DNA of 21,990 nt from Methanobacteriaceae archaeon (lineage in GTDB: Archaea > Methanobacteriota > Methanobacteria > Methanobacteriales > Methanobacteriaceae), in NCBI GenBank assembly GCA_003558085.1, contig PWMT01000070.1, positions 1-21,990 of the forward strand. The letters are read 5' to 3'. This document shows positions 1,511 through 18,419 of the stretch, piece after piece. The notes below the pieces were generated by a model. That model was not told the DNA's origin. It worked only from the letters and a program-made list of their open reading frames with translations, and made no database searches. Numbering within the stretch: position 1 is the stretch's first letter; the number at the start of each line of letters is the position of its first letter. The translations under genes and the position numbers were made by a program.

Positions 1511-1594
<84 letters not shown>

Positions 1595-1682
1595 CTTAAA
1601 TCAAATTATATCATTAACTATTCTAATCAAATAGAATTTAAACTATAATACTAATGCCCTTTTATAAAGAATTTTATCAGCA

Positions 1683-13503: not shown

Positions 13504-13839
<336 letters not shown>

Positions 13840-14833: not shown

Positions 14834-14851
14834 TTTGAAGAGGTGCTTTTA

Positions 14852-15547
14852 ATGTTTAAACTACGTTATGAAGCAGGAGATATTATATCCTCTGCAGTAC
14901 ACCAAATCGGAATTCTGGCTCTAGGATCTCATCTGGAAAATCATGGCCCTGCCCTGCCCATCGATACTGATGCTAAAATTGCATCCTACGTTGCCTTAGA
15001 AGCCTCCCTGATTACTGGTGCTAAATTTTTAGGGATTTTATATGCAGCCACCGAGTATCCCTTCATACCCCATGGATTACATATGAATGTGGAGGAACTG
15101 GTGGAGCAGAGATTAAAGCCTACCTTGAACTCAGCTAAAAAATCTCTTAACTTAAAGCAGATAGTTTTAGTAAATGGTCACGGAGGAAATGTACAAATAA
15201 TAGAATACCTGGATAAAATAGAACAGGATTTAGAACTGGAAATTGTCTTTAACAATCATTTAGTCAAAATTGAAGGTCCCCATGCTAGTTCAGGAGAACT
15301 CTCCATAGGCAGCATACTGGGTATAACTAATACTTCCAAATTAGAGGAAAGTTGTGATCTAGCAAAATATCCTGAAGTAGGCATGTGCGGATTTAAAGAA
15401 GCTAGAGAGAAAGATGAAGGGATTGAAAAAGGTGCTCAGTTAGTGGAAGAGAAAGGAACTTCTATGGATCCTAATTTAGGCCGAGCCCTTTTAGATGAGG
15501 CTGTTAAAGACGTAGTTAAAGATGTAAAAAAATTTCTAGACCTATAA
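14852..15547 (+). CDS. arfB: 2-amino-5-formylamino-6-ribosylaminopyrimidin-4(3H)-one 5'-monophosphate deformylase (creatininase family)
   Basis: '[17 protein letters not shown]', 'VNGHGGN', 'EGPHA..GELS', 'YPEVGM'. Start ATG 14852 after a GAGGTG SD (track uses GTG 14843). Confidence 0.88.
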
Positions 15548-15724
15548 ACAGATTACTAAACATTAAACTATCCCTTATACCTAAATTTAAATTCATTTTC
15601 TATTATTTTTAACCTAGGTAGAGAAAAAAATGATTTTTTTTTATAAGAAAAGAAGTTTTTAAATATTATTTTTTTATAGCATCTGTAAAGATTATAGAAA
15701 GATAATATGGTAGGAGGTGATAAA

Positions 15725-15823
15725 ATGGACACCTACACCTACTACCATATTAAAGGGTTTATAGAACCCTTGGTAATCATATTAGTTAGAGGGGTTAATA
15801 AATCTTTATTTACTACCCAATAA
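15725..15823 (+). CDS. Putative 32-aa small protein with a sequestered SD
   Basis: AGGAGGTGAT (15712-15721) precedes the ATG. Product MDTYTYYHIKGFIEPLVIILVRGVNKSLFTTQ. Purine-rich BRE plus TTTAAATA at 15658-15665. No recognisable homology. Confidence 0.5.
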   Translation: MDTYTYYHIKGFIEPLVIILVRGVNKSLFTTQ

Positions 15824-15914
15824 GTATAGAATATTACACTCCCCCTAACTATTTAGAGGCCGATATACTATTTCTAAAACTTAATAAAGAAAGATTTAGA
15901 GATTAATTCAAAAT

Positions 15915-18419
15915 TTAACCTTCTATGGATTTAATCATTCTAGCACATTCTTTAGCCTTTTTAGGTTTACCGATAGCCTGTGCTATTCTTCTAACTGCAT
16001 CCAGCATCCGCACCACAGCATCCAGCCAAGAGAAAATATCGCCAGGGTAGGCCTGGATTTGATAATTACTCATCAATCTCCGACTAATATCCACCGGATC
16101 TAGGCCATTTAATCTACTTTTTATGATTTGTGAAGATAGTTTCTTCTCCATACAATAACAGAAAGGACTCTCCTTACATTTACAGGAGAGGAAATCTATT
16201 TGGATATTTAATACTGGTTCCTGCAAGCCAGGGTCTAGTTTGGCCAGGTTTTCCCCTGAAGAAATGATGTCCAGGGTGGAATCAGCCTGCAGTCTGGTGG
16301 AAAACTTAGTCTTTAAAATCTGAGTTAACTGTCGATGCAGCCTCATGGATAAATAGGCACTGGTGAATGGTTCTAAAAAAGAAGCCATATCCAAAACCCC
16401 TATTTTGGGTTTCTTTTGCAGGTTCTCTTGAATATAATAAGCATCTTCTATCTTGAGGAAAGACTTAGATACTGCTCGTCCTAAATTAGTAGGTTTTAGG
16501 TGATGATCATCTACTTGGATCCAACCATAAGCTTCTATATTTCGCAATGCTTGATCTAAATCCAAGGGTAAGGGTAGGTCTTGATAAAAGTCAGATAGAT
16601 GTTTAGAATCTTTAAGAGCATAAGCGCAGATATCAGCTAAAATTTGCTCCAATGCATCATCTTCAGAATAATAAACATTTACTGGATCAACATCACCCTC
16701 TAATAATTCCACCGCCTTTAAGTCTTCAGTTTCTTCTTCTAAGTTTAAACCAATTTCTGCTAGAAGATAAACCTTCCCCCGGTCATGATAAGTTGGCCTT
16801 CCAGAGCGACCAACCATCTGGGAGAATGCATTAGGGCTGAGCCATTTATTACCCATCAGCAGGGTTTCAAATAGCACCTGTGAGGCCGGAAAATCCACCC
16901 CCGCTGATAGTGCAGCGGTAGTGACCACGGTGGATAGTTCCTGTTTGCTGAAGGATTTCTCAATCCGCTCCTTTTGACTGTAAGATAGGCCCGCATGGTA
17001 GGCTGCTGCTTTGACTTTATGCCGGTTTAAATGTTGGGCAATAAGATGAGTCTTCCTCCGTGAATTAGTGAAGATTATGGTCTGCCCCTGGTATCCCTTG
17101 CTGGATTTTTTTTTAGATTCCTGACGAGATAATTTGCTAAGCAATAACTTTTTTTCCTCCTCACTGCGGGTGAAAATCAGATGACGTTCTAAGGGTACTG
17201 GCCGGTGTTCATATTCCACTAATTTCATTTGAAATTTACCTGCTATTTCTTGAGGATTTTTAATTGTAGCAGATAATCCAATAAGTTGTAGGTGAGGAAA
17301 AATAGTTTTAAGTCGTTTGATCAAACCATTTAGGCGTGGGCCGCGTTCTTCATACTCCAAGGAGTGTATCTCATCAATAACCACCACCCCTAAATCCTGC
17401 AGATGCTCTGATTTACCTGATCGGAGCAGATAATCTATTCCTTCGTAGGTACCCACTACCAGGTCTGTGGTTTTAACATGAACTTCCGGTATTTGGATTT
17501 CTTCCCGGGCCTTTATCCTGCTCCTTCCCACTTTAATCGCGGTTTTAAGGTTCAAGGATGAGTATTTTTTTTTAAAATCCCGGTATTTTTGGTTGGCCAA
17601 GGCTACCAGTGGGGTGAGGAAAATAAATTTCTGCCCTTTTAAGGCTGCTGGTATGCCTGCTAGTTCTCCGATTAAAGTTTTTCCACTGGCAGTGGCTGAA
17701 ACCACCAGCAAATTTTCATCTTCTAGCAAACCTTTTTGGAGGGCCAAGTATTGTACTGGTAATAATTTATCATTTCCCTGCTTCTTCAAGCTCTGTTTAA
17801 ATATTCTAGGAATTTTTAAAGAATTAATATCTATTTCCGGTATGGTTTTATCTTTTAAGGAGGATATGGTATCATATAGGGTGAGCTCTGCATTTTTTAG
17901 TGGATTGAATTTAGGATGCATCACCTCTAATACCTGATCCAGATTACCGGTTTTATGCAGTAAACGTTTAAAATTAATAAAAGTTTTTTTATCCAAACCC
18001 TGATATTCTAACTCTCTTTTTAACTCTTCTTCGGCACAAATACGGCATATTCTTTGCTTATGATGATAATATGAAGATTTAGAAGATATAATTGTAATGT
18101 ATCCTTCCAGGGTGCAGTGTGGGCAGATCTGGGTGCGACGATACTTTATATTCAGGGCATCTAGAAATTGTTCTGTTTGTGCATCCTTACCCACCACGAA
18201 TACGGCCTGCTTTCTTAGAAGTTTAACAGCCTCCTGTGGAGGCAATATATTTTCTTTTTGGTTTTTAACTATGAATCGATTGATCTTAGGTCCCTTAGGG
18301 GTTTCCTTGAACTTAATATAGCCATAAAATTCTGGTTTCCGGCGTGAATTAAGAGCACCCTGGGGACTGCCAATAGGATAAACTTCTCTGATTTTATTTT
18401 TCTTGGTAATAATTATCAT
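15915..18419 (-). CDS. Archaea-specific superfamily II DEAD/DEAH-box helicase (COG1202-like)
   Basis: 'SATASGKT', 'IDEIH', 'LSAT', 'YHAGL', 'TAALSAGVDFPA', 'QMVGRSGRP'. Cys clusters near both ends. Confidence 0.92.
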   Translation of the reverse strand: MIIITKKNKIREVYPIGSPQGALNSRRKPEFYGYIKFKETPKGPKINRFIVKNQKENILPPQEAVKLLRKQAVFVVGKDAQTEQFLDALNIKYRRTQICPHCTLEGYITIISSKSSYYHHKQRICRICAEEELKRELEYQGLDKKTFINFKRLLHKTGNLDQVLEVMHPKFNPLKNAELTLYDTISSLKDKTIPEIDINSLKIPRIFKQSLKKQGNDKLLPVQYLALQKGLLEDENLLVVSATASGKTLIGELAGIPAALKGQKFIFLTPLVALANQKYRDFKKKYSSLNLKTAIKVGRSRIKAREEIQIPEVHVKTTDLVVGTYEGIDYLLRSGKSEHLQDLGVVVIDEIHSLEYEERGPRLNGLIKRLKTIFPHLQLIGLSATIKNPQEIAGKFQMKLVEYEHRPVPLERHLIFTRSEEEKKLLLSKLSRQESKKKSSKGYQGQTIIFTNSRRKTHLIAQHLNRHKVKAAAYHAGLSYSQKERIEKSFSKQELSTVVTTAALSAGVDFPASQVLFETLLMGNKWLSPNAFSQMVGRSGRPTYHDRGKVYLLAEIGLNLEEETEDLKAVELLEGDVDPVNVYYSEDDALEQILADICAYALKDSKHLSDFYQDLPLPLDLDQALRNIEAYGWIQVDDHHLKPTNLGRAVSKSFLKIEDAYYIQENLQKKPKIGVLDMASFLEPFTSAYLSMRLHRQLTQILKTKFSTRLQADSTLDIISSGENLAKLDPGLQEPVLNIQIDFLSCKCKESPFCYCMEKKLSSQIIKSRLNGLDPVDISRRLMSNYQIQAYPGDIFSWLDAVVRMLDAVRRIAQAIGKPKKAKECARMIKSIEG

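Follow-up and report, generated by a model that had tools for sequence, protein, structure and literature searches.

To our knowledge, very few pairs of an archaeal small RNA (sRNA) and its target are known. Bacterial type I toxin mRNAs and RNA thermometers bury a sequence resembling a Shine-Dalgarno (SD) sequence in a stem. In the 'kissing' antisense RNAs CopA and RNAI, as in toehold-type switches, a loop contacts the target first and pairing then spreads into the stem. Among archaeal sRNAs, sRNA162 of Methanosarcina mazei masks a ribosome-binding site in trans (PMC3510493). sRNA132 of Haloferax volcanii is an intergenic sRNA that regulates pst operons positively, and both of them accumulate when phosphate is low (PMC6560208).

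The locus considered here lies between the convergent genes for arfB and a helicase in a 21,990-nt stretch of DNA from a Methanobacteriaceae archaeon (contig PWMT01000070.1), referred to below as the window (Table 1). From sequence comparison, its minus strand probably encodes an sRNA of ~85 nt (about 15772 to 15690), which would pair with the SD sequence and start codon of the pstS mRNA and repress its translation (estimated probability, about 0.6). CopA and RNAI are plasmid RNAs encoded in cis, whereas the window sRNA would be a chromosomal, trans-encoded RNA of an archaeon. A buried SD-like sequence is common to this locus, type I toxin mRNAs and RNA thermometers, but here there is no conserved ORF and no transmembrane (TM) peptide, and the sequence is best taken as complementary to an anti-SD carried by the opposite strand. 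The predicted RNA would resemble sRNA162 in masking a ribosome-binding site in trans; the experimentally demonstrated sRNA162 uses a single-stranded linker, whereas a hairpin loop and arm would be used here, and target and organism group are unrelated (PMC3510493; compared by description, not by sequence). With sRNA132 it would share an archaeal intergenic origin and a tie to operons for the phosphate-specific ABC transporter (pst), but, again by description, the role of sRNA132 is positive whereas repression is predicted here, and the two belong to different phyla (PMC6560208). The kind of regulator, a trans-acting antisense sRNA, is already known, and the predicted pstS-directed RNA would be a new member of it. 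In the literature and Rfam, with the supplementary sRNA tables of methanogen transcriptome papers outside the scope of the search, no description of the predicted RNA was found, and the same literature gave neither an sRNA-pstS pair nor any sRNA-target pair for Methanobacteriales. Such an RNA would bear on the post-transcriptional control of phosphate uptake in methanogens.

Table 1. Features of the locus (window coordinates)
Feature	Position	Strand	Remarks
arfB (archaeal riboflavin/F420 pathway deformylase)	14843..15547	+	NF033501 equivalog, E 8.5e-88
TATA-like box TTTAAATA	15658-15665	+	
Predicted sRNA, ~85 nt	15688..15773	-	Ends approximate; 5' hairpin (7 bp), 16-bp main hairpin, U-rich tail
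Hairpin 1 (main hairpin)	15703-15719 / 15736-15752		16 bp, single G15714/A15741 mismatch
Anti-pstS segment	15713..15733	-	Complement of pstS SD-spacer-start-GACACC
32-codon ORF, including FIEPLVIILV	15725-15823	+	Judged not a gene
Hairpin 2 (5' hairpin of predicted sRNA)	15753-15759 / 15765-15771	-	
Hairpin 3	15783-15851		TAGTTAG 15783-15789 / CTAACTA 15845-15851; folds on either strand
TATA-like box TTTATTAA	15802-15795	-	Near-consensus, 23 nt upstream of first hairpin (G000)
Ski2/Hel308-like helicase, DEAD/Helicase_C/DUF5814	15915..18419	-	Convergent neighbour

Direct reading of the sequence confirms the layout given in the initial annotation, namely three hairpins, a buried SD sequence, an ATG, a doubled CACCTA and a 32-codon ORF. 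The SD sequence AGGAGGTGAT is buried in the stem of hairpin 1, the ATG (15725-15727) lies in the loop, and CACCTA is repeated in tandem at 15730-15741. The annotation took this doubling as a means of forming two registers; the registers are conserved, and they are a trivial consequence of GGUG being present in the SD sequence (GGUGAU) as well as in the stretch complementary to codons 2-3 (GGUGUC). The fold is beyond chance, at about 5 sd below shuffles: the region 15690-15860 folds at -50.4 kcal/mol on the plus strand (z -5.36) and at -50.9 kcal/mol on the minus strand (z -4.46), and hairpin 1 alone gives z -5.28, with 0/200 shuffles as good in each case. The annotation had also allowed for a multi-copy palindromic repeat; the hairpin stretch is single-copy in its own 1.86-Mb genome (G000). 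T-runs (T9 and T7) separate the arfB stop codon from hairpin 1. Hairpin 3 overlies the predicted promoter directly past the helicase stop codon, could not be recognised in the three other g1 species (G001-G003) when these were aligned with it, and is possibly a helicase 3'-end structure.

Among known RNA families, tRNA-Leu (GAG; window 1511-1595, plus strand) is the sole Rfam 15 or ARAGORN match in the window. Over the hairpin locus no Rfam match reaches the gathering score, the best local one scoring 27.2 bits against a cut-off of 52.7 for an unrelated family. Inspection by eye found no CUGA or ACA boxes and no two-sided pocket, so K-turn/K-loop, C/D-box and H/ACA sRNA assignments were rejected, and an XerA dif or ORB site was dismissed for its wrong spacing.

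Among relatives, BLAST first recovered the hairpin only in the three other g1 species, always just 3' of arfB, and short matches near arfB in other genera led to homologs with a near-identical apex and different but complementary outer stems. The apex, comprising the SD sequence, spacer, start codon and GACACC, is almost invariant. In a set of 328 genomes of the order, 22 carry the exact core GGTGATAARA(N0-2)TGGACACC, at 31 places in total; the reversed pattern, used as a control, occurs in none of the 328. These 31 places divide into 16 hairpin elements and 15 pstS gene starts. Two more copies, both diverged (G325 and G326), emerged with a covariance model built on the core; in a family sample of 151 genomes it matched in four genera (g1, g11, g15 and g31), and in a phylum-level sample it added only known copies of genus g23 plus one match inside a 100-codon ORF (G204), which was dropped as chance. 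Overall, the element is present in 4/4 genomes of g1, 1/1 each of g9, g11 and g15, 4/6 of g31 and, by exact pattern, 7/9 of g23, which belongs to another family. Five g24 genomes gave no match better than E 0.02, the element was not found at the arfB flanks of 17 further genomes or in G324 and G329, and in g13 only pstS itself and generic start sites matched; the covariance model gave no convincing match in the other genera sampled. The search across relatives that the initial annotation proposed thus found the stem conserved in six genera of two families.

Every copy folds into the main hairpin in single-sequence folds, and in the model-fitted alignment five of the six pairs of the outer helix are changed on both sides and outer stems reach 15 bp. 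The covariation score is 0.245, as against 0.104 for shuffled alignments (0/500 reach the observed value) and at most 0.056 with slid partners, in an alignment that leans to the structure of the model to which it was fitted and in which 6 of 24 rows repeat loci already represented, matched on the reverse strand; pairs were counted separately on the 16 distinct forward rows. RNAalifold on MAFFT alignments found no covariation within the genus, where hairpin 1 is invariant, and across genera MAFFT misaligned the diverged 5' arms, so that single-sequence folds and the model-fitted alignment were used instead. The 5' hairpin stem is found in 10 of 12 copies of family f1, with differing sequences (AAGGGUU, GGGGG, GGGGA, GGGA and others); it is replaced by a longer AT-rich stem in G011, weak in G001 and absent in g23.

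In every copy the element is flanked by the 3' ends of two convergent genes, and the upstream gene varies, being arfB in g1, g11 and g15 and that for a class II ribonucleotide reductase (RNR) in g23. In G011 the element is inverted relative to its neighbours and thus lies behind the helicase gene. The changing neighbours and this inversion are the behaviour of an independent small gene. On its sequence features, the element is conserved, structured and functional-looking.

The 15 core places outside hairpins all represent one gene start, consisting of an SD sequence, an A-rich spacer and ATG GAC ACC AAA. The gene product (MDTK..IIGI..GSTSVQP) is a PstS-family phosphate-binding protein (TIGR02136, 234.6 bits; PF12849). 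Within the anti-pstS segment, part of the loop lies over the start codon and the 3' arm over the SD sequence. In G000, the segment is identical to the pstS initiation region (G000:C68:~55049) at 20 of its 21 nt, a single A being bulged, and a comparison of 15 genomes found 18-23 nt shared by element and pstS start in every one (without mismatch in the five g23 genomes; with one or two bulges of 1-2 nt in f1). When the minus-strand sequence was scanned for duplex partners in its own genome, scoring 2,472 candidate sites with an exact 8-mer seed, the pstS start was the best non-self partner at -42.8 kcal/mol, the next reaching -37.0 kcal/mol. At a looser threshold look-alikes are common: with two mismatches allowed, a 17-mer taken from a g13 pstS start matches another 0-7 sites in each genome.

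Read from the aligned sequences, there are two independent joint changes of element and pstS, one at the start codon (A/T in g1) and one in codon 2 (C/T in g31). In g1, G000 carries ...AAAATGGACACC in the element and ...AAAAATGGACACC at pstS, with ATG in both, and G001-G003 carry ...ATTTGGACACC and ...AATTTGGACACC, with (T)TTG in both and TTG as the pstS start codon. In g31, the G325 and G326 elements have GGATACC and their pstS has the synonymous change GAC>GAT (ATGGATACC), whereas G327 and G328 have GGACACC at both loci; GGACACC is invariant in all other examined copies of both. A joint change at a synonymous site is as expected for direct RNA-RNA pairing, and only a minus-strand transcript of the element could pair with pstS mRNA. 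Differences flanking the core are mostly pstS-G versus element-A or pstS-U versus element-C, which an antisense duplex would accommodate as G.U pairs; they occur in g23, in G031/G035, in G325/G326 and at 15718 (T>C) in a strain from DNA run X2. Genus g24 has the same pstS start sequence and no detected element, which indicates that conservation of the pstS start is independent of the element.

Computed thermodynamics support the pairing model without proving it. The net gain on duplex formation (cofold minus monomers) is -8 to -21 kcal/mol in 11 genomes but only -3.5 to -7.3 kcal/mol in g31. Of 14 genomes, 11 show a gain greater than that of any of 50 shuffles, the three others being G325, G326 and G328, and only three of the six rows of a cross matrix rank the cognate pair first.

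Some further features of pstS were recorded. In g1 and g31, pstS is tandemly duplicated, with copy 1 beginning MDTK... and copy 2 MDSK... (L093-L101, L117-L126), and the start sequence mirrored by the hairpin is carried by copy 1 only. In g1, an in-frame ATG lies 18 nt upstream of the start both at pstS (G000:C68 ~55041) and in the element (window 15707). Genera of both families share a pair of conserved boxes, (T)TCACTAAA ... GTACACTAAA(A)TAGTAAC in type, that precede the TATA box of pstS (TTTAAATA) (G000:C68 ~54950-55060 in L072; L093-L096, L117-L120, L078, L081 and L086); they look like an operator for a phosphate-responsive regulator.

Structure alone leaves the two strands of the element nearly balanced. 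The minimum free energies (MFEs) summed over 17 copies are -447.5 for the plus and -462.2 for the minus strand, and G.U and A.C counts are about equal (13 versus 15 cells), with a G.U in G001-G003 favouring the plus strand. Promoter positions are more informative. In the minus sense, an exact TTTATATA-type 8-mer occurs at a fixed distance in 12 of 18 copies (8/12 in f1 and 4/6 in g23): in f1 the exact boxes lie 59-71 nt upstream of the core, which is 21-23 nt ahead of the 5' hairpin, and in g23 they lie 42-44 nt upstream of the core. Near-consensus boxes occupy the same place in four more copies (G000, G001, G013 and G025), and G017 and G036/G037 have no good minus-sense TATA box. The four exact g23 boxes and the near-consensus one of G025 are all exactly 24 nt from the hairpin base, with differing spacer sequences. 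Chance would yield such a box in 1.1% of copies in f1 (13-nt window) and in 0.07% in g23 (3-nt window), and in the neighbourhoods of the copies no plus-strand gene follows that could own the minus-sense box. The plus-sense TATA box that the initial annotation reported at 15658-15665 does exist, but it has no fixed-position counterpart in relatives, where plus-sense boxes are sporadic and at varying distances. The minus strand is therefore, on promoter evidence and the logic of covariation, best read as the likely coding strand. A look-up of sequencing runs containing the stretch listed no RNA run; metatranscriptome X10 yielded no contig for it, and the DNA runs yielded strain variants only (four runs in all).

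These strand data also bear on a rather unlikely alternative in which the plus-strand RNA is the functional one. It would be a caged mimic of the pstS initiation region, either transcribed from a promoter of its own or forming the 3' UTR of the gene upstream, and would act as a decoy titrating a protein or RNA that acts on the pstS start. The equally good folding of the plus strand and the G.U pairs in G001-G003 and in the inner stem of G013 and G011 are compatible with this, as is the position of the g23 hairpin, which starts 8-35 nt past the RNR stop codon and probably within the 3' end of that mRNA. In f1, however, plus-strand runs of T7-T9 stand between the hairpin and the gene upstream of it; no plus-sense TATA box holds a fixed place, and the flipped orientation in G011 sets the element behind a different gene. 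In addition, the mirrored synonymous GAC>GAT change is expected for base pairing but not for a protein-binding decoy.

The RNA favoured here, the minus-strand sRNA, would be the product of a gene with its own TATA promoter, with a short hairpin at the 5' end, followed by a long one and then by a U-rich tail. Its 5' end was placed by TATA spacing and its 3' end by the U-rich tract; the RNA so delimited has a predicted MFE of -28.6 kcal/mol (z -5.92; 0/200 shuffles as good). In f1 the minus-sense hairpin is succeeded by U-rich tracts; g23 has none, and the transcript there would run antisense into the end of the RNR gene. We infer minus-strand transcription, pairing of the RNAs in the cell and a repressive effect alike. 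The loop and 3' arm of the long hairpin are complementary to the pstS mRNA 5' end from the SD sequence through codon 3, the loop holding the complement of the spacer, start codon and codons 2-3 and the 3' arm holding the anti-SD. The 14-16-nt loop might first pair with the start-codon region of pstS as a toehold; pairing would then spread into the stem and cover the SD sequence, so that ribosomes could not load and PstS synthesis would be repressed. Until this specific contact, the 5' arm would cage the otherwise generic anti-SD.

The 'SD and small gene' in the hairpin would then most likely be the mirror image of a regulatory RNA on the opposite strand. As a fallback, the initial annotation had offered a structured sRNA, possibly opposed by antisense read-through, which was the right direction; the SD sequence and ATG are now read instead as the complement of a minus-strand anti-pstS RNA. 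The finding is also a caution for small-ORF annotation, as what looks like a perfect SD sequence with a small ORF inside a hairpin can simply reflect an antisense regulator encoded on the opposite strand.

An origin of regulators by inverted duplication of their targets has been proposed for young plant miRNA genes. For the present element, the G000 element/pstS similarity extends to ~28 nt (TATGG..AGGTGAT...), as would fit an element that arose when the 5' end of pstS was duplicated. With odds that we place a little short of even, the element would be a self-caged anti-SD/anti-start riboregulator derived from an inverted duplication of the 5' end of its target gene and kept across two Methanobacteriales families. 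If so, this would be the first defined sRNA family of Methanobacteriales and the first riboregulator of phosphate uptake in methanogens, with a specific loop serving as the toehold that licenses an otherwise generic anti-SD. The locus offers a sharp, testable hypothesis, with one small RNA, a target site of ~20 nt and natural compensatory variants.

Two readings dispense with an sRNA altogether. A terminator or 3'-end stabiliser between convergent genes, resembling the pstS start by chance as ordinary SD-ATG contexts may, would suit the constant position of the element between convergent 3' ends and the frequency of start-site look-alikes at 15/17 nt. Yet the identity spans 18-23 nt, the reversed control gave no matches, pstS has changed jointly with the element twice, and a loop that is invariant across two families while the stems drift is not needed by a terminator, which makes this explanation improbable. 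Marginally less probable again is a DNA-level site, in which GGTG-N10-CACC would be an operator for a phosphate-responsive transcription factor at both pstS and the hairpin locus, and the hairpin would be incidental. The shared core is indeed a short dyad (GGTG...CACC) located at the predicted pstS transcription start, and two sites of one factor could co-vary. Such an operator would leave unexplained the covarying outer stems of up to 15 bp with five of six pairs doubly changed, the 5' hairpin and the fixed TATA box, and there are just two sites per genome.

The initial annotation favoured a type I toxin-like or otherwise translationally gated microprotein, and proposed ORF retention across relatives as a check. 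Across the 18 homologous copies the ORF is not kept: it ranges from 4 to 32 codons in differing frames, with Met-Asp-Thr alone common to all 18, and it stops after four codons in five copies and after 9-17 in six more. Within g1, G001 keeps 24 codons and G003 keeps 25, and G002 stops after nine; the start codon is TTG in all three. In L034, a metagenomic relative of G003, the ORF stops after 17 codons, and in the X2 strain (~87% identical) an additional T after 15749 ends it after nine. The in-frame ATG at 15707 would give a 38-aa product, and neither this nor the 32-aa product has an exact match among 15 billion catalogued proteins. The hydrophobic run FIEPLVIILV exists as annotated, but at 10-11 residues it falls short of TM length, and the 18 copies share no small hydrophobic TM peptide ORF of the kind expected in a type I toxin-antitoxin system. 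Nor does the thermometer or cis-acting SD-sequestering leader that the annotation also considered hold up, as no conserved ORF lies downstream and the gene that comes next is in convergent orientation. It is thus very improbable that the plus strand gives an mRNA for a gated microprotein, whether toxin-like or thermometer-controlled: all copies do combine a perfect SD sequence, a correctly spaced ATG or TTG and a sequestering stem, and three of four g1 species have a 24-32-codon frame with a hydrophobic end and one within-genus indel of 3 nt, but the ORF is short in many copies, differs in frame and is broken in G002, L034 and the X2 strain, the locus is single-copy, the product is absent from the protein catalogue, and a copy of the pstS start fully accounts for the start-site features.

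A few minor observations concern the neighbouring genes. A deletion variant is seen in one contig of DNA run X2, which jumps from 15841 to 15890 (48 nt) immediately beyond the stop codon of the helicase gene. The arfB match in G017 (L040, G017:C157:3004-3693) contains one in-frame TAA, which may reflect a sequencing error, a pseudogene or two ORFs. In G033, the RNR upstream of the element has an insertion ending ...VHNC, which reads as intein-like (L012 1-1453), and the G011 copy is without it. In the window, a universal archaeal PUA-domain protein (TIGR03684; 14360-14833, plus strand) and an 81-aa ORF that by eye resembles an archaeal Sm-like protein (13504-13749, minus strand) are encoded 1-2 kb from the predicted sRNA.
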